Shown: positions 7,068-54,199 of the stretch, in pieces
How positions within the stretch are numbered: position 1 is the first letter of the stretch
Layout of the letters: every line of letters begins with the position of its first letter
Source: a virus
IMG/VR virus record: IMGVR_UViG_3300022554_000002
Coordinates: 96,001 to 160,000 of that record
DNA: 64,000 nt
Reading direction: 5' to 3' (one strand)
The notes under the pieces: model-generated
Told to the model about the DNA's origin: nothing
Database searches by the model: none
The model's input: the letters and a program-made list of their open reading frames with translations, nothing else
Made by a program: the position numbers and the translations under genes

Positions 7068-7074
7068 TATAATC
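7068..7074 (-). promoter_or_regulatory. GATTATA phage-type promoter (protease-capsid operon)
   Basis: cGATTATActttatagagg, 35 nt before the ATG at 7033. Confidence 0.6.
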
Positions 7075-10510: not shown

Positions 10511-10517
10511 TATAATC
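10511..10517 (-). promoter_or_regulatory. GATTATA phage-type promoter
   Basis: tGATTATActaatatgaggg, intergenic. Confidence 0.6.
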
Positions 10518-14215: not shown

Positions 14216-14222
14216 TATAATC
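14216..14222 (-). promoter_or_regulatory. GATTATA phage-type promoter (portal operon)
   Basis: gGATTATAttactatgagag, intergenic. Confidence 0.6.
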
Positions 14223-20560: not shown

Positions 20561-20567
20561 TATAATC
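20561..20567 (-). promoter_or_regulatory. GATTATA phage-type promoter (start of head-internal cluster)
   Basis: tGATTATAgatattagagg, intergenic. Confidence 0.6.
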
Positions 20568-29530: not shown

Positions 29531-29537
29531 TATAATC
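29531..29537 (-). promoter_or_regulatory. GATTATA phage-type promoter before the HNH gene
   Basis: aGATTATAtcatagtagaagg. Confidence 0.55.
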
Positions 29538-37851: not shown

Positions 37852-40377
37852 TTATGCGTCCTTTCCTCTTGGGTCAAACCATCCATACGTCCACATGCAA
37901 GCAACCGATTGTTTCGTATTTGCTCGCATTCTCAATTGTGCAGATGTATTTGTTCTAAAAATATTTCCTGCTGGTCCCTGCGTTACGCCAGTTCCTCCCT
38001 CCGTCACTTGCAGCGAATTTTGATTTCCGTTAGCAGGCGCGACATCGGTAACAAGTGGTGATGACGTATACGTTGATATTGTGTTTAATGCTTTATATCC
38101 GTATGTTGTTACTTGCGCTAGAACTTCAACACCTGTGGGGACACTTATTGTGTACAACGTTGCACTGGTGCCTAATGTTGCCGATGCATTTACGTCGTAT
38201 ACAGGCGTCTTCCACAGGAACAAATCACCATACTGTGTATAGGCGATAATATTTGCACTTCCATTCGTCAATACTGCACCAATTCTTCGTTTGAAATCAT
38301 AGTTTGCTGGCATTGTTGGTGCTGTTGCAGATGTACTGAATAACGCATCAACTACACCCGTATCACTACGCTTAATTAGCCACACATGGTACCATGTAGC
38401 ATTGCCAACTGAGCCTGTATCAAGACCACCATTGCCCGAACCTACAGCCCATGACGCATCAATTCTCTTTGTTATTGCTGCTGACAAAACTAAATCAGCA
38501 GCATTTGTAGAATCCCTACAGGCACCAGCGGCAATATCAATATTATGGTCTGCATCTGTTCCATTATTACTGGTGATTAATCCGTCAATATATCCACGTG
38601 GCAAGCCTGTAGCAGTTGATCCAGTGGTCATAGCCCTACGCATGGTTTCAATACCAGATGCATAATTCTTAGTATATGCAATATCGGCGTGGTCATAGGT
38701 AATTTCGTGACTATGAACTGCACCATATTGTTCAGCGAAACCTTGCCATGATTGTACGCCGTCTGCTGGATTCTTATAAACGTAATATGATTGTCCATTG
38801 CCAACATTAATGCTGAACCACTGAGTGCCGGAATCTAGTGTATTTGCCGCTGGACGATCTGCATGTAATCCATAGAGGATTTTAGAACCTACCCACATTC
38901 TACGCATGGTTTCAATACCAGATGCATAGGTAGTTAGTGCTGTAGTATCGCCACCAGTAACCATTGCACGTCTTAAAGTTTCGATACCTGAAGCATATTC
39001 TGTTAACTCTTGTAAATCAACAATAACACCAGATAGTGTATTAGTATTTGATGTTAATTCATTTTGTACAAGAATTAATTGACCATTAATACCAGATGCA
39101 TAGGTTGTTACTGCTGTGGTATCACCACCAGTAACCATTTGCCTACGCATAGATTCAATACCAGAGGCATATGCTTCTATTGCTGTGGTGTCACCACCAG
39201 TAGAGGAACCAGAAACACCATTTAAAACACCACGGTAGCTAACTACGATGCCTTTTGTGTCACTAATGGCAATCATTACAGGTTTTGAAATAGTACCGCT
39301 TGTAATTGGTTCAGTTGGTGTTAACTCACCTAAGTTATCAGCAGACAGGAAGTACACAATACCGGGAATTAAACCGCTTTGATTTTCAATTTCACCCTCA
39401 AATACAGCAGTAAATTGATTACCTGATGTAGATTCAATGATAGCAACTGATTCAGCAGTAACAATATTGTCTGCTTTAGCTTTTGCCCACTGTTCACCAG
39501 TGGTTCTATAAATTGCATTTAATGCAGAAAAATCGTGTGTTTGAATATAAGTTTGACGAATGCTTGATCCGGTAGCCGTAGACGTACCACCAGCAGGTCT
39601 TGCACCTATTCCTGAAGCATATTCTGTTAACTCTCTTAAATCAGTAATAATGCCTGATGTTGTATTAGTATTTGATGTTAATTCATTTTGTACAAGAATT
39701 AATTGATTATTGATACCAGATGCATAAGATTCTAACACAGGATTGGAAGAAACCATGACCCGACGCATAGACTCAATACCGGATGCGTAGGATTCAATTT
39801 CTCGTGAATCAATAATTAATCCCGATAATGTATTACTAGCAGCAGTTTGATTTATTTGAATTACATTTAGTAGCGTTTTTGTTCCAGAAGCATAACCAGT
39901 AATATAGTAAATATTTGATTGGTTAACAATTGCTAACGCACCAATACCAGATATATATGGTTCTAGTGCTGGATTTGAACCACCACCAGACAAAATCATT
40001 GAATCTACATAATGTTTATTAGTTAAATCGGCAGGAATGGTTGGCCAACGATATTGTAACGCTCTTTCAAAGGATTTAATACCAGATAAATTCTGGTTTC
40101 CTTGAGTTCTAATATATGTAATAATGTCGGCTAAGTGGGCAGATGTTATAACACCAGAAGCAATATTTTCTGGAACTGTAATAATCTCGCCTAAGTCGGT
40201 TCCAGAGGTTAATTTATCTCCGGTAATAGTCCCATTGGCTATTAATTCGTTAGTGATTGCTTCTAAGGAGATGTGTCTTGTTTGAATATAACCATCTTGT
40301 ATGTCAGGATTTGGGTAAGCACCTTGTAAGGCACCACCCGCAGCATCACCATATCTAATTGGGTCAGTTAAAGCCAA
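37852..40377 (-). CDS. long tail fibre protein with YASGI repeats and modular domains
   Basis: TTG start; NQNLSGIKSF...LTNKHYVD fibre motif; about 10 YASG repeats; GC-richer C-terminal domain. Confidence 0.75.
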   Translation of the reverse strand: MALTDPIRYGDAAGGALQGAYPNPDIQDGYIQTRHISLEAITNELIANGTITGDKLTSGTDLGEIITVPENIASGVITSAHLADIITYIRTQGNQNLSGIKSFERALQYRWPTIPADLTNKHYVDSMILSGGGSNPALEPYISGIGALAIVNQSNIYYITGYASGTKTLLNVIQINQTAASNTLSGLIIDSREIESYASGIESMRRVMVSSNPVLESYASGINNQLILVQNELTSNTNTTSGIITDLRELTEYASGIGARPAGGTSTATGSSIRQTYIQTHDFSALNAIYRTTGEQWAKAKADNIVTAESVAIIESTSGNQFTAVFEGEIENQSGLIPGIVYFLSADNLGELTPTEPITSGTISKPVMIAISDTKGIVVSYRGVLNGVSGSSTGGDTTAIEAYASGIESMRRQMVTGGDTTAVTTYASGINGQLILVQNELTSNTNTLSGVIVDLQELTEYASGIETLRRAMVTGGDTTALTTYASGIETMRRMWVGSKILYGLHADRPAANTLDSGTQWFSINVGNGQSYYVYKNPADGVQSWQGFAEQYGAVHSHEITYDHADIAYTKNYASGIETMRRAMTTGSTATGLPRGYIDGLITSNNGTDADHNIDIAAGACRDSTNAADLVLSAAITKRIDASWAVGSGNGGLDTGSVGNATWYHVWLIKRSDTGVVDALFSTSATAPTMPANYDFKRRIGAVLTNGSANIIAYTQYGDLFLWKTPVYDVNASATLGTSATLYTISVPTGVEVLAQVTTYGYKALNTISTYTSSPLVTDVAPANGNQNSLQVTEGGTGVTQGPAGNIFRTNTSAQLRMRANTKQSVACMWTYGWFDPRGKDA

Positions 40378-40444
40378 GGTTCATTCCCTGCTGGTTCGAC
40401 CTAACAGGAATACCGCCCATCAGAGACGGTACTTTCCATAGTAA

Positions 40445-40451
40445 TATAATC
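40445..40451 (-). promoter_or_regulatory. GATTATA phage-type promoter (fibre-terminase operon)
   Basis: cGATTATAttactatggaaag; 13 nt identical to the 14216 promoter (GATTATAttactatg). Confidence 0.65.
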
Positions 40452-40492
40452 GTTAATTAGGCAGGGAATTGCTGTTTAGGAAGGAAAAATTA

Positions 40493-40669
40493 TTACAAAA
40501 TTGGTTTTGTTTTACGAATACCAGTTTCACACTCAATACAGATATTGTCATTTGGACGTACAGACTTAATACGCACTTTAGCACCACATTTACAACATTT
40601 GCCTTCAAACATATAAATTGTGGCTTTTAGTTTTCCATCACAGTAGAGAGTTGTATTATTCTGTCTCAT
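40493..40669 (-). CDS. small Zn-finger protein
   Basis: MRQNN... CCKCG...CIEC. Confidence 0.5.
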   Translation of the reverse strand: MRQNNTTLYCDGKLKATIYMFEGKCCKCGAKVRIKSVRPNDNICIECETGIRKTKPIL

Positions 40670-49432: not shown

Positions 49433-50244
49433 CTAGACTTTGGGGAATTTTGGTGTCCAATGACCTTCTACAAGATTAAAGTCATCAAAAATTAATGGTT
49501 CTTCAGCTTGCATTACTTTCAACATAGCAGTTGCAACTAAAAGAATCTCTTCTTCAGCAGCAGCACAACAACGAAGATTAAAAATATGTCTAAGAGCACG
49601 TAGATTACCCGTCCAAACCCCTCCCGTTGCTACCCCCATTGGGATAATACGACGCATCATACTTGTAATTTGTTTCTTATATTTAAATTTTGACTCAGGA
49701 GAAAGTTCATCCTTCCAAATATCAACCAATTTGGTGTAATAATCTTCAACAAGAGTAAATACATTATTGACAATCTCTCTTGATTTTTGTTTTTTTGCAG
49801 CTAATAGACAATTATCTCCATCTTCCTCTTGAAGACTGGTTGGCATCCAAAAAGGAATGTCTTCATACCGAATATAACGCATTGAACCTTAGAAATGGCC
49901 ATACCAGCACGATGTCGGTTCATTTCTCCTGTGAAAACTCTGCTAACATTTTCAAGAGCAAAGGTATAATTAACATGTTCCATGACAGAACCATGTCCAC
50001 TTTTGAGAATATTGTCAATATATTCCTTTGCATCATCACGAACTTTTGTAACATTGGGATTAAGCAGTGGTACAAAAGCTTTATAACACCTTTTACCAGC
50101 AAGCATCATAAGTTGCTCACCCGGTGTTCTATTAGGATCAAGTTTGTAGTCTTCTGCTTCAAGACTATCAAGCCAGTCTCTTGCATTATTATTGCAAATT
50201 TGTGTTTTAGCTAACAAAAAAACAGTTGGCTGAACATTGTGCAT
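49433..50244 (-). pseudogene. thyX: FAD-dependent thymidylate synthase interrupted by a 1-nt deletion
   Basis: GHGSVMEH...VSRVFTGEMNRHRAGMAIS in one frame and SMRYIRY...NLRALRHIFNLR in the next; inserting G between TCT and AA (49890/49891) restores RHRAGMAISEGSMRY. Confidence 0.85.
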
Positions 50245-50443
50245 TACCTTCTCCTATTTACTATTCCTTAAAAAACGTAAGCTAAAAATTTATCTTTAAT
50301 TTCAAATATTACAGAATTACCTGTAAATAATGCTCCTTGAGTAATTATTGCTTCTTTAGATATTTTTAACTTATTTAACATAATATCTAGATTATTTTGA
50401 GCTTTTTCTTTAGAAACACCCACAGCAATTTTACAAAGCATAT

Positions 50444-50653
50444 TTATTCCTCATATGGAATACTGAACGACCACTCATCTTTCAACAAATCAGAATCACG
50501 TAAATATCCAGAAAAACTATTTGTACTGTCACGAATAGGAACTATTCTTTCTTCATTAATCCAATTTATCATTCCTATAAAATAAATTTTTTCATGCTTG
50601 GTATTATAAATACCTTGAAAATTACATAACCAGTTAATTTCTTCTTTGGTCAT
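50444..50653 (-). CDS. hypothetical protein
   Basis: 69 aa, SD aggag, after a sigma70 promoter. Confidence 0.6.
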   Translation of the reverse strand: MTKEEINWLCNFQGIYNTKHEKIYFIGMINWINEERIVPIRDSTNSFSGYLRDSDLLKDEWSFSIPYEE

Positions 50654-50669
50654 ACTTTCTCCTGACTAT

Positions 50670-50697
50670 ATTATACAATGAGAGATTGAAATGTCAA
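50670..50697 (-). promoter_or_regulatory. sigma70-type promoter TTGACA-N16-TATAAT
   Basis: TTGACAtttcaatctctcattgTATAAT. Confidence 0.75.
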
Positions 50698-50752
50698 GGA
50701 AAAACCTGAAGAGTGAAATATATATTCACTAACTCAGTATGACGGTCGTGAT

Positions 50753-51925
50753 TTACTTCTTACTCTCTTCATTGGTCTTGGTTTTATTACCCAAATTCCT
50801 CTGAGAGTCTTTGTTTATCCTCTGCCGTGAATCCTCACGGTGGAGTAAGGCAAAAGCTTTTATGTTTTTCGCTGCATTAATATCTCGATCATGGAAAGTG
50901 TTACATTTAGCACATGTCCATTCTCTGTGTTGTAACTTTAGGTTTTTATTTATTTCTCCACAAACTGAACATATTTTGCTACTTGGTTTAAATTGTCCTA
51001 TAAATAAGAGATTTCTACCATACCATTCTGATTTATAAGTTAGCTGGCGTTTAAACTCATACCAACTAACATTACTTATAGCTTTGGCTAATTTATGATT
51101 TTTTAACATATCTGTAATATTTAAATCTTCTAAGCAAATTGTTTGGTTCTCACGAATTAGCTTAGTAGACAATTTTTGCAAAAAATCATATTTTTGATTC
51201 GTAATTTTTTCATAAATTTTTGCTACAATGAGTTTTTGTTTTTCTCTGTTTTTGCTTCCTTTCTGTTTTTTATTGAACATTCGTTGATGATGTTTTAGTC
51301 TTTTTTCTTGTTTATTAAAATATTTAGGATTTGTAATTTTATCACCATTTGAAGTTACACAAATATCTTTAAGTCCCAAATCTATACCAATTGTTGTATT
51401 GCTTACAATGGGTGGTTTAGTGGGAATTGGTTCACCAGTATCAACTAGTATACAAGCAAAGTATTTATTTGTTTTTGTTTTTACAATGGTTGTAGTTTTA
51501 ATCTTACCTGTAAATTGTCTATGAAAAACACATTTAATATTTGGAATTTTCATAATGTGTAATAAACTATTATTAAAATCTACTTTTGTATATTGAGGGC
51601 ATTGAAATGTTTGTTTTTTATTTTTAGATTTAAATACTGGAAATTTTGCTTTGTTATTATTAAAATTTGTGAAAGCATTATCAAGATTCATAAGAGCCAT
51701 CATTACTGCTTGACTATTTACTACTTTTAACCAGGGTAATTCCTGTTTTAATTTTGGTAGTTGTTTTTTAATTTCATAACAAGTGATTTTTTTGTTTTCT
51801 GCTTGGGTTTTAAGTCGTTGTTCTAGCCCCCAATTATAAATATATCTACAACACCCAAAATGCTGCCCTAAAAATTTCTTTTGTTTTTCTGTAGGATATA
51901 TTTTATATTTATAAGTTTTTAACAT
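50753..51925 (-). CDS. tnpB: RNA-guided endonuclease TnpB
   Basis: MLKTYKYKIYPT...FGCCRYIYNWGLE HTH; RuvC IGIDLGLK, ICLEDL, HDRDINAAKNI; Zn finger CSVCG...CAKC. Confidence 0.93.
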   Translation of the reverse strand: MLKTYKYKIYPTEKQKKFLGQHFGCCRYIYNWGLEQRLKTQAENKKITCYEIKKQLPKLKQELPWLKVVNSQAVMMALMNLDNAFTNFNNNKAKFPVFKSKNKKQTFQCPQYTKVDFNNSLLHIMKIPNIKCVFHRQFTGKIKTTTIVKTKTNKYFACILVDTGEPIPTKPPIVSNTTIGIDLGLKDICVTSNGDKITNPKYFNKQEKRLKHHQRMFNKKQKGSKNREKQKLIVAKIYEKITNQKYDFLQKLSTKLIRENQTICLEDLNITDMLKNHKLAKAISNVSWYEFKRQLTYKSEWYGRNLLFIGQFKPSSKICSVCGEINKNLKLQHREWTCAKCNTFHDRDINAAKNIKAFALLHREDSRQRINKDSQRNLGNKTKTNEESKK

Positions 51926-51954
51926 TTAGAGAATCTTTATCCCCTTTCTAAGTA

Positions 51955-51961
51955 TATAATC
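51955..51961 (-). promoter_or_regulatory. GATTATA phage-type promoter before tnpB
   Basis: aGATTATAtacttagaaagggg, 30 nt before the ATG. Confidence 0.55.
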
Positions 51962-51984
51962 TAGTTTTTTATAAAAAATAGAGG

Positions 51985-52036
51985 GAAATGGTTAATTTAA
52001 ATAGTATGACGGTCCCGTATTTAAATTAACCATTTC
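51985..52036. repeat. perfect 19-bp inverted repeat (hairpin) with the 12-bp direct repeat in its loop
   Basis: gaaatggttaatttaaata (51985-52003) / tatttaaattaaccatttc (52018-52036). Confidence 0.85.
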
Positions 52037-52760
52037 TATTTACAAAGTCTACCGTCTTTGTAAATATTTTTTCCTCTATAAACTCTTTACTCTCCAAGTA
52101 CTTATCGAAATTTTCAAACAAGATGTTCTTCTGTCCTTCAGTGTACCCATATTCTATAATCGTACATGGACATTTTGAATTCCAAAAGATTGTTCGTGGA
52201 ATTCTATAACACGTAGCCATGTGCATAAAGAAACTGTCAAGCCCAATATAATGTTTACAGGAGGATAAAATCTTTATTGCCAACTCTAAATTTTGAATTT
52301 CATCCAAATCTATAAATGTTATATTGTTATCGTCTAACTTTTTTATTAGCTTTTTCCATAATTCTTCAGGAAGCTGTTTTAGATTTTTAAATGTTGAGCA
52401 TTTATTACTAATAGCAATAATATTACTAGTTTGCACCACAGGTATTTGTGGTGGCATAGTAGTATAATTTCTAGAAACTTTTACTCCTGTAATAAATTGA
52501 ACTTTGTCCAATATATAATCTGCGTGGCTTGTTGATGCATGAATTCCTGCTTTAAATGGATACAGAACTTTGATTTCACCAAAGGAACGTCCAAATTTAA
52601 AATTGTACCCAAGCAATGTTAATAGAAAGTTATATTTTTTATAATCAATAAACACTTCTATGTCAGAATTAGCAAGATTTGTAAATGCATTATGACTAAG
52701 TATTATATCTCCTATGGCACCGGGATGTAAATGCCTAAGTGTTACAACTCTCATATCCAT
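52026..52760 (-). CDS. glycosyltransferase family 9-like (heptosyltransferase fold)
   Basis: HPGAIGDIILSH...LAIKILSSCKHYIGLDSFFMHMA. Confidence 0.75.
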   Translation of the reverse strand: MDMRVVTLRHLHPGAIGDIILSHNAFTNLANSDIEVFIDYKKYNFLLTLLGYNFKFGRSFGEIKVLYPFKAGIHASTSHADYILDKVQFITGVKVSRNYTTMPPQIPVVQTSNIIAISNKCSTFKNLKQLPEELWKKLIKKLDDNNITFIDLDEIQNLELAIKILSSCKHYIGLDSFFMHMATCYRIPRTIFWNSKCPCTIIEYGYTEGQKNILFENFDKYLESKEFIEEKIFTKTVDFVNRNG

Positions 52761-53431
52761 TTCTTAACAGGATGCCATAGACCTTTTTGTGTTACATCTA
52801 TATTAGATTCTAGTTTTTGAAAACTAATATTACCTTGATAATTACTAAATCCTTTTGGTGGGTAGCCAACCCTATTTGCTAAAGTTGGAAAACGTACCTC
52901 ACAGAAAACGCTGACAAATTCCTTTTGTAATAATTCTACCATTTTAGCCAGAACAATATCATCAATTAGAATTACTGTAAAAGGCATTATACCAGTATAA
53001 AATGGCTTATAGCTTTCAGGCAAGTTATTATACTCTTTCTTCCAGTACCATTCTCCGTCTGTTATTCCTGCTCGTCCAGCAACTACAAAAGGATCGTTCC
53101 AGTTATCACCCCAAAACTCCTTGAGATTCATATTGCATCGTACATCAGCTTCAAGTAAAACCCACTTTTTACAATTATTCTTTTTGTTTAACCACCAGAG
53201 ATAGTTTAATAAATCACAATTTTGCCAAGCTTTGTTTTTATTGATTGCCACACGTTGCCAAATATCATTTAAATCGTGTAGCTTTTTCGCGGCTAAACCA
53301 TCTTTGAATGGAATGTTACCTGAAATAGTTTCAATGGGTACATTAGGATTATGTTGTTTCATTAATTCAATATGTTTTGTTGTAACATCATTTGTATCAA
53401 TGTGTCTTACAACAATTCCATATTCTAACAT
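52751..53431 (-). CDS. putative GT-A fold glycosyltransferase
   Basis: WVLLEADV (ExD), FCEVRFPTL; lies between GT9 and GT14 genes. Confidence 0.4.
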   Translation of the reverse strand: MLEYGIVVRHIDTNDVTTKHIELMKQHNPNVPIETISGNIPFKDGLAAKKLHDLNDIWQRVAINKNKAWQNCDLLNYLWWLNKKNNCKKWVLLEADVRCNMNLKEFWGDNWNDPFVVAGRAGITDGEWYWKKEYNNLPESYKPFYTGIMPFTVILIDDIVLAKMVELLQKEFVSVFCEVRFPTLANRVGYPPKGFSNYQGNISFQKLESNIDVTQKGLWHPVKKWI

Positions 53432-53434
53432 GTG

Positions 53435-54199
53435 TTAGTCCAAAAACGTTGATTCGTCATTAAACTTTCTAGCAAATAGGCATTCATGTGTTCCATACGC
53501 ATCAGTATGTATATTATAATTTAATGCTTCTTGATATTCATCCGCAGTCAAGACTTCTGGACCATGTTTACCTTTGATATGGTTATAATACATTAAATGA
53601 TGTTTTGTGTTTAATGAAAATTTTGCTAACATGGTTTGAAAGTAAAACTCAACAGGGAATATCGTATTTCGTTCTAGGAACAACCTTCGTCTATCATTTT
53701 TCCATCTATCTAATACATGTCGTGCTGCATCCTTGGTAATTGCCCAATATGCATATCCACAATAAGGGTCTAATTCGTGGTAAACAATATTGAAATCTTT
53801 AGGAATACGTACCGCTGGTTTATCACCTTCTGGCCAAGGTAACTTTTCACAGCTTATGAATTCATTATATTCATTTGTATTGAAAAAATCATTAATATAA
53901 TCAGGTTTGACAATAGGATAGTCAGAACCACTTAAAAGTACAATATGTGTTACGTCTTGTGAAACACCATATTCTAGCAAATTAATAGTTGCTTTAATGG
54001 TGTTCCAATCTGCCCAACCAGTTCTTTGTGGATTATTAATTTGTTTGGATAGGCATAACTCAGAAAATTCAGTAGGATAAAATGTATCTAGATTGAGAAA
54101 TACTTTTGCATATGGTTGGTCAATAGCCGTAATAAGCCTATGAAGATGCTTCGGATTATTATGAGCTAATATACAGTATGCTATCATTGAACCACCCAA
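53435..54199 (-). CDS. glycosyltransferase family 14 (core-2/I-branching-like)
   Basis: IAYCILAHNNPKHLHRLI, LLSGSDYPI, VEFYFQT, LFARKF. Confidence 0.8.
   Translation of the reverse strand: MGGSMIAYCILAHNNPKHLHRLITAIDQPYAKVFLNLDTFYPTEFSELCLSKQINNPQRTGWADWNTIKATINLLEYGVSQDVTHIVLLSGSDYPIVKPDYINDFFNTNEYNEFISCEKLPWPEGDKPAVRIPKDFNIVYHELDPYCGYAYWAITKDAARHVLDRWKNDRRRLFLERNTIFPVEFYFQTMLAKFSLNTKHHLMYYNHIKGKHGPEVLTADEYQEALNYNIHTDAYGTHECLFARKFNDESTFLD

Follow-up and report, generated by a model that had tools for sequence, protein, structure and literature searches.

A transposase-free TnpB-omegaRNA cassette in a 194-kb phage genome as a candidate RNA-guided homing or competition gene

The window analysed here is a stretch of 64,000 nucleotides, bases 96001-160000 of the complete virus record IMGVR_UViG_3300022554_000002 (194,473 bp with direct terminal repeats, 35% G+C), and it holds a tnpB gene together with an overlapping guide RNA, or omegaRNA. 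On the comparisons set out below we consider, with somewhat better than even confidence, that the segment from 50748 to about 51961 is a TnpA-independent, phage-adapted TnpB-omegaRNA homing or competition cassette derived from an IS200/IS605 ancestor. By analogy with homing endonuclease genes such a cassette, 1.25 kb in size, probably spreads or competes as they do. A homing or competition cassette had already been proposed in an earlier sequence-only reading of the locus. That proposal agrees with the empty alleles found in related phages, the absence of tnpA, the omegaRNA, the phage-type promoter, the lost transposon ends and a sister cassette at a second site, whereas the role it assigned to a repeated 12-mer and the guide register it suggested had to be corrected.

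The nuclease, its guide RNA and the cassette ends

The TnpB protein contains the Pfam domains PF12323 (HTH_OrfB_IS605), PF01385 (OrfB_IS605) and PF07282 (Cas12f1-like_TNB) in this order, all above cut-off, and phmmer matched its residues 3-361 to ISDra2 TnpB with an E value of 5e-60. The three RuvC acidic residues and the zinc finger that had been noted from the translation were confirmed by alignment to ISDra2 TnpB: the triad D182/E266/D348 corresponds to D191/E278/D361 of ISDra2, and the zinc-finger cysteines C319/C322/C338/C341 are invariant in 10 relatives. The closest TnpB proteins among 5.8 billion sequences are P0004 (74%), P0005 (67%) and P0006 (60%), found on contigs L053, L054 and L055-L060, respectively, and in all of these contigs tnpB stands alone. 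The window, L053 and L054 represent one subclade, and in these three members, which differ by 26-33% in protein, the tnpB open reading frame (ORF) and all catalytic residues are intact. Altogether 422 phage records matched the window TnpB. Positions equivalent to those contacting the target-adjacent motif (TAM) in ISDra2 (PMC10097598) differ between the window subclade and its canonical IS605-type relatives; position 113 is T in the subclade and V in the canonical relatives, and position 75 is M in the window only and Q in the canonical relatives. A TTTAT TAM transferred from the canonical relatives was considered and set aside as unjustified, since the TAM-contact positions differ.

An omegaRNA-like hairpin had been pointed out at 50825-50840, and it proved to be real, being helix 1 of a covarying omegaRNA. 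The last ~120-140 nt were aligned for the window, L053 and L054 and for the canonical relatives L055, L141, L144, L146 and L147. This alignment supports three helices with 22 pairs, in which 176/176 cells are paired and 10/22 pairs show compensatory changes (RNAalifold and pair counts). The pairing score was reached by none of 500 shuffles, and controls slid along the alignment paired at 35-54%. Two of the compensatory pairs, both in helix 2, are found in the window only, and the RNA of the window has therefore been kept under structural selection. The covariance-model match in the window scores 133.6 bits and is the sole copy in the genome, compared with 138-153 bits for the canonical relatives. 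No Rfam family was matched at E<=1 within 50000-52600.

At their 3′ ends the cassettes of the window, L053 and L054 share 85-86% DNA identity up to ...AATCAC and have nothing in common beyond it. Since the identity of the three cassettes ends after ATCAC, the right end lies at 50748. The guide of ISDra2 consists of the final ~16 nt of its RNA, which derive from the DNA right after the right end (PMC8612924), and when this rule is applied to the right end at 50748 the predicted guide is 50747-50732. The downstream copy of the 12-mer GACCGTCATACT is therefore guide nucleotides 1-12 and not an IS terminus. The guide proposed earlier, starting ACT..., is off by 9-12 nt according to the three-cassette comparison. 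Homology to two cassette-free relatives, L039 and L040, restarts exactly at the guide start. Judged from covariation and from this shared boundary, the omegaRNA is real and its scaffold ends at ATCAC (50748). The small hairpin at 50712-50730 with its U-tract, which had also been described, is present, but its fold is no better than that of shuffled sequences (z -0.58).

The statement that tnpA is missing was found to apply to the genome as a whole. The complete genome contains no match to the Y1 transposase family PF01797, no serine recombinase (PF00239, E<=1), no second tnpB and no second omegaRNA, and no tnpA is recorded beside the tnpB genes of the relatives. The relatives at 56-60% identity (L055, L141, L144, L146 and L147) end in GTTCAT. 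In L055, L141, L144 and L147 this is preceded by a right-end hairpin of ~23 nt, where L146 has unrelated sequence, and TTTAT is located 5′ of the presumed left end; L055 and L147 also have a matching left-end hairpin upstream of tnpB. Judged by these sequence features, the ends of the L055/L141/L144/L147 type are classical IS605 ends. In the subclade of the window, L053 and L054 the cassettes end in AATCAC, with no counterpart of the right-end hairpin segment. No matching left-end hairpin was found in the window, where the sole upstream hairpin is unrelated in sequence and spans a gene end. The 5′ sides of the window, L053 and L054 are alike from the promoter onward only (p 0.015; distal part p 0.61). 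The cassette accordingly lacks both the tnpA and the TnpA-recognised end hairpins of IS200/IS605 elements and the serine recombinase TnpA of IS607. There is no group I intron 5′ of tnpB as in IStrons, the distance from the 12-mer to the ATG being just 77 nt, and the intact triad separates the protein from TldR, in which RuvC is inactivated. Among the canonical elements, L055:6189-6400 and L056:1505-1720, which belong to a 60%-identical TnpB element, are identical for ~200 nt past the stop, beyond GTTCAT, and then diverge; this shared stretch is either extra 3′ cargo or shared flanks.

The GATTATA promoter reported inside the cassette was substantiated. Its GATTATA (51955-51961) represents a motif class in which GATTATA and a downstream TAYAGAG(G) are 2-6 nt apart. 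The class has ~12 intergenic copies genome-wide, located 20-75 nt upstream of ORFs on the same (minus) strand, and the L053 and L054 cassettes have a promoter of this type too. The loss of the end hairpins and the presence of a phage-class promoter indicate that the cassette has adapted to this group of phages and does not serve as substrate for a Y1 transposase. Examples of the motif on the minus strand of the window are, besides 51955-51961, those at 40445-40451, 29531-29537, 20561-20567, 14216-14222, 10511-10517 and 7068-7074. The motif is distinct from the sigma-70 consensus promoters of the genome and may be read by a phage-encoded sigma factor.

Empty and occupied sites in related phages

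The sequence-only reading had anticipated an empty allele with one 12-mer joined to the right flank, and such alleles exist in two related contigs, L039 (Logan run SRR22388275) and L040 (JGI 3300049893). In both, the upstream gene is followed by ~95 nt, the orthologue of the 69-aa downstream gene and then thyX, and there is no tnpB. A single 12-mer (11/12 identical) stands right behind the stop codon, and after it comes a clear orthologue of the right flank of the window (p<0.001) with the same consensus sigma-70 promoter. The 16-nt guide of the window matches L039 and L040 at 14/16 positions, the mismatches being at positions 12 and 13, and the 5′ flank of the target is CTTAG. In both relatives the 12-mer forms the apex of a long imperfect hairpin made up of the gene end and the following DNA (dG -20.8 and -24.5; z -3.7 and -4.6); the ancestral locus therefore already had a hairpin with this loop. 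Between the window and the relatives the loop is conserved at 11/12 positions while the stems diverge. Identity to L040 across the site is 0.90 on the left, 0.65 at the junction and 0.76-0.85 on the right, with two relatives only. This locus, site A, is consequently known in a filled form in the window and an empty form in L039 and L040, and the empty form contains the target of the guide. A pattern scan of IMG/VR for the 12-mer with its flank gave 12 matches, all of them unrelated chance occurrences.

The converse arrangement is seen at a second site, B. L053, which comes from the same run as L039 (SRR22388275), carries a cassette that is 74% identical to that of the window in amino acids and 79% in nucleotides. 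Its flanks match genome positions 136,001-136,555, equivalent to 40,001-40,555 of the window, where the window genome is empty, and homology restarts exactly after the ATCAC of L053. The L053 guide matches window 40403-40388 at 15/16 nt with the 5′ flank CCTGT, and this target is the apex of a hairpin in a 5′ untranslated region. At the left junction of L053, 7 nt of the ascending arm of this hairpin are replaced. Two adjacent hairpins are located in the window at 40385-40450 (minus strand), between a GATTATA promoter and the TTG start of a tail-fibre-like gene; the second has the L053 guide target, and its ascending arm is the one replaced by the L053 cassette. In L054 (ERR4334730) the cassette occupies a third site, C, in a phage of this group that is more distantly related, and the relatives found in the search for an empty allele of this site were just 39-44% identical, too distant for junction comparison. 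The right junction is exact at both testable sites, A and B. The left junctions are imprecise, with 7 nt replaced at B and ~60 nt remodelled with a duplication at A. Neither L053 nor L054 has an upstream repeat like the 12-mer of the window.

The 12-mer pair, the perfect hairpin and the neighbouring genes

The 12-mer was confirmed at both places where it had been reported, 50736-50747 and 52003-52014. A search of the 194,473-bp genome that tolerated one mismatch found no further copy, and the reversed pattern, used as a control, had 0 matches. It was likewise correct that the upstream copy lies in the loop of a perfect 19-bp inverted repeat. The arms at 52018-52036 and 51985-52003 enclose a 14-nt loop containing the 12-mer, and the fold has a dG of -20.8 kcal/mol and a z of -4.45. 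This is the longest perfect hairpin in the genome, the next having 15 bp, and perfect hairpins with a stem of at least 12 bp number 14 in the genome against 0-1 in shuffled genomes. Together with its T-tract it is probably the terminator of the upstream gene. Outside the window, at G000:C1:167496-167530 and 167781-167813, two near-identical perfect hairpins with a 12-13-bp stem lie 285 bp apart and have one common 9-nt loop, AAAGTCAAG.

The two copies had been described as a direct repeat. They are neither a pair of IS termini nor a simple target duplication, as the downstream copy is guide nucleotides 1-12 and the upstream copy is the ancestral apical loop. The upstream copy matches guide nucleotides 1-12 only, and the match is limited to 12 nt because the hairpin stem differs from the guide. 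The outer arm of the hairpin does lie in the end of the upstream gene, as described; the assignment of this gene to GT9 is weak, with a Pfam E value of 0.012, below cut-off. Two relatives of its protein are on record (P0001 and P0002, 78-84% identical), and none was found in IMG/VR. Identity of the gene to L040 is 0.90 and falls to 0.65 in the last 100 nt, and its last ~60-100 nt are remodelled in comparison with the cassette-free relatives. It has an 18-nt in-frame insertion at ~52057-52074 (minus strand) relative to L039 and L040, and its C-terminus reads ...FVNRNG where theirs reads ...KVHSLT. Part of this new 3′ end is arm 1 of the perfect hairpin.

The 32 nt that follow the 12-mer in its upstream copy weakly resemble the descending arm, CTCT box and T-tract of the relatives (p ~0.01). 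They also resemble the downstream copy of the window at p ~0.04 when exact boundaries are used, and with extra flank included the flanks of the upstream and downstream 12-mers are not similar (p 0.69). These comparisons are suggestive of a longer duplication beyond the 12-mer. In a fold test, no pairing was seen between arm 1 of the window and the downstream arm. The possibility that an ancestral arm 1 was copied by fold-back was considered and rejected, given that a hypothetical empty allele assembled from the cassette flanks present in the window gave no fold (z -0.2). The alignments would fit a duplication of the descending half-hairpin at insertion and a later swap of both upstream stem arms; templated filler DNA at a messy junction would also fit, as would recombination between diverged alleles. 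Among 80 related loci, no other upstream/downstream repeat starts at the right end as in the window, and the longer repeats there (13-17 nt) look like common left- and right-end hairpin sequences.

One may speculate, though we think it quite doubtful, that the 12-mer duplication and the perfect hairpin are the footprint of TnpA-less cassettes taking and holding sites by hairpin-apex entry, half-hairpin duplication and stem-arm swap. A cassette would then enter at the apex of an extruded hairpin, as at sites A and B, where the target strand would be single-stranded and TnpB could act TAM-free. Entry would duplicate the descending half of the hairpin, and the upstream copy would escape self-cleavage by swapping both stem arms while the functional loop is kept. 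If true, the upstream copy would be a 12-nt seed-only site at which the ribonucleoprotein (RNP) binds without cutting, and the locus would exemplify an RNA-guided, transposase-independent mechanism of insertion and self-immunity with a built-in regulatory site.

The features of the locus are collected in Table 1. Most genes near the cassette are carried on the minus strand. The remnant of the ancestral hairpin that follows the guide, within which the small hairpin at 50712-50730 lies, is a possible terminator for tnpB and the omegaRNA. Further downstream, thyX is present as two overlapping ORFs on the minus strand, 49801-50244 (Pfam Thy1 9-82) and 49433-49882 (Thy1 87-190), which suggests a frameshift, either real or a sequencing error; L039 and L040 have a single intact thyX of 199-201 aa at the same position. 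The thyX region of the window (49433-50441) shows no blastn similarity to L039:3655-4260 or L040:809-1408, the flanking genes being 72-83% identical, and it includes an extra 57-aa ORF at 50268-50441. These comparisons suggest that this region, which lies ~300 nt from the TnpB cassette on its downstream side, is a module that has been replaced.

Table 1. Features of the cassette locus and of site B (window coordinates)
Feature	Position	Strand	Basis
Upstream gene, 244 aa, weakly GT9-like	52026..52760	-	ORF list, Pfam
Perfect 19-bp hairpin, then CCTC and T-tract	51985..52036	-	Fold, genome hairpin scan
12-mer, upstream copy (apical loop); 5′ flank TACGG	52003..52014	-	Sequence match
TTTAT at end of T-tract, adjoining the cassette; candidate TAM	51971..51975	-	Pentamer as in canonical relatives
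Cassette promoter of phage class: GATTATA and downstream TAYAGAG-like box	51941..51961	-	Motif scan
tnpB, 390 aa, catalytic residues intact	50753..51925	-	Pfam, alignment
omegaRNA scaffold of three or more helices, over the 3′ end of tnpB; cassette right end at 50748 (...ATCAC)	50748..50867	-	Covariation
Predicted 16-nt guide; nucleotides 1-12 are the downstream 12-mer (50736-50747)	50732..50747	-	Three-cassette comparison, relatives
Remnant of ancestral hairpin: descending arm, CTCT box, T-tract	50698..50731	-	Orthology to L039/L040, p<0.001
Promoter of sigma-70 consensus type (12/12), serving the downstream 69-aa gene (50444-50653); also in L039/L040	50670..50697	-	Comparison
Site B, empty target of the L053 sister cassette, before a tail-fibre-like gene	40388..40411	-	Guide match 15/16

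Proposed mechanism, alternatives and significance

TnpB takes its guide from the flank of its element, makes a staggered cut 15-21 bp from the TAM and can cut single-stranded DNA independently of a TAM (PMC8612924). Following the ISDra2 paradigm, transcription through the right end would produce an omegaRNA with a ~16-nt guide beginning GACCGTCATACT, aimed at the hairpin of cassette-free relatives, namely its loop and descending arm. The RNP would recognise the cassette-free allele of co-infecting relatives and would cut it at a distance of 15-21 bp from the TAM. The cassette could then be copied in by repair from the genome that bears it, as in non-restorative homing, or the rival genome might simply be disadvantaged. 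The specificity of the system would be set by the right flank of the cassette, and selection for a working guide may be the reason why the right junctions are exact and the left ones messy. The cassette would be protected from its own nuclease at the downstream copy by the scaffold end, which stands in place of a TAM, and at the upstream copy by the 12-nt extent of the match, which would allow binding at most. With ISDge10 TnpB, cutting is lost progressively as guides fall below 14 nt, and 10-nt guides bind without cutting (PMC13507860). Spread of IS605 through plasmids independently of TnpA has been described previously, as has the concept of non-restorative homing (PMC13565253).

Several observations weigh against a homing or competition cassette of this kind. 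The two natural candidate targets are preceded on the 5′ side by CTTAG (site A) and CCTGT (site B), which have no clear common motif and both differ from the TTTAT of the canonical relatives. Homing cannot account for the move of a cassette without TnpA ends to the new sites A, B and C. The empty alleles come from phages that are just 77-90% identical, and the L039 and L040 alleles may be resistant through the mismatches at guide positions 12-13. No near-identical pair of filled and empty alleles was found, and a near-identity search of 49500-53500 against 50,697 phage records gave no match.

Some of these points would also be expected of a hitch-hiking relic, open and expressed without useful cutting, whose distribution reflects phage mosaicism and moron-like gain and loss by illegitimate recombination. 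The empty alleles mismatch the guide at two positions, a TAM is not recognisable in them, and the neighbourhood is mosaic, with thyX replaced and split and an 18-nt indel in the upstream gene. A relic is nonetheless unlikely in our view: the ORF and its catalytic residues have stayed intact in three subclade members across a protein difference of 26-33%, the window has compensatory changes of its own in omegaRNA helix 2, and an exact right junction at both testable sites is not predicted by random insertion. Slightly less likely again is that the cassette is a non-autonomous IS200/IS605 element moved in trans by a Y1 TnpA of the host, the 12-mer repeat being incidental. The family is IS605-derived, hairpins at the left and right ends and a TTTAT target are found in its canonical relatives, and TTTAT directly precedes the cassette; the right junction is exact at two sites, and the cassette is found at three different sites in related phages, as mobilisation by a transposase would have it. 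The subclade, however, has neither the canonical right-end hairpin nor a matching left-end hairpin, its 5′ side is conserved from the promoter onward only, and its left junctions are imprecise, with the replaced 7 nt at B and the remodelled ~60 nt and duplication at A. In addition, there is no tnpA in the phage and none is recorded beside the tnpB genes of the relatives.

A homing cassette is not separable by sequence alone from a pure inter-phage weapon, whose RNP would destroy the genomes of co-infecting relatives at a conserved hairpin loop while the cassette is not copied. The guide is indeed aimed at a loop conserved at 11/12 positions between diverged stems, and phage homing endonucleases are known to do so where there is too little homology for conversion (PMC13565253). 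The sister cassette, with another site and another guide, is more in keeping with a selfish element than with a dedicated weapon, and we give the weapon-only explanation little credence. The least probable explanation is a regulatory one, in which the RNP binds the 12-nt self-match without cutting and controls read-through from the upstream operon or its own expression, in the manner of TldR or short guides: an exact match to guide nucleotides 1-12 does sit in the longest perfect hairpin of the genome, 39 nt upstream of the cassette's own promoter, ISDge10 TnpB binds with guides of 10-12 nt but does not cleave (PMC13507860) and TnpB acts on matching single-stranded DNA without a TAM (PMC8612924), but the nuclease is intact, unlike in TldR, L053 and L054 have no such upstream repeat, the loop is ancestral to the locus, so that no role of TnpB is needed to account for it, and its 5′ flank TACGG is not a known TAM.

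The protein and the RNA are members of the TnpB/omegaRNA family. They resemble ISDra2 TnpB with its reRNA/omegaRNA (PDB 8bf8/8exa/8h1j; PMC8612924, PMC10097598) in domain order and catalytic residues, in a structured RNA over the 3′ end of tnpB and in a guide taken from the DNA directly after the right end. Unlike ISDra2, the window genome has no tnpA and the cassette has no left- or right-end hairpins for TnpA binding; its promoter is of the phage class, its carrier is a lytic-type phage of 194 kb, and several of its TAM-contact positions differ. With the canonical IS605-type relatives (L055, L141, L144, L146 and L147) it shares a homologous protein and an omegaRNA with three common helices, and it differs from them in ending in AATCAC in place of GTTCAT. 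The free-standing homing endonuclease genes of T-even phages (SegF, SegB and MobE; PMC13565253) are similar in being small nuclease genes with their own promoter in the intergenic gap between conserved genes, in being present or absent among related phages and in having their target at the insertion point of the cassette-free allele. They are different in that recognition by the window cassette is predicted to depend on an RNA guide set by the right flank and not on protein. In the plasmid IS605 "gene drive" (PMC11870625), or "transposon non-restorative homing" (PMC13565253), TnpB is likewise proposed to cut the element-free molecule and recombination to copy the element; those are complete elements in plasmids, whereas the element of the window lacks transposition ends and is found in a phage. 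TldRs, nuclease-dead transcription factors derived from TnpB (PMC10705468), also lack a transposase and have a guide match near a promoter, as in the 12-nt self-match here. The RuvC triad of the window TnpB is intact and its sister cassettes have no self-match, and it is not a TldR.

TnpB is among the commonest of phage genes. Homing driven by TnpB has been published for complete IS605 elements in bacteria and plasmids, and for phages it is so far a proposal only. The homing or competition cassette favoured here would provide a natural test case, with no ends that a transposase could move, a predicted guide, natural empty alleles and a reciprocal filled/empty pair at a second site, and its 12-nt seed-only self-match could be used to test the boundary between binding and cutting. 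The locus would thereby illustrate how the nuclease of a transposon can turn into a gene for RNA-guided homing or competition that stands on its own. A change from transposon nuclease to free-standing RNA-guided gene is the kind of step that is thought to lead towards Cas12.

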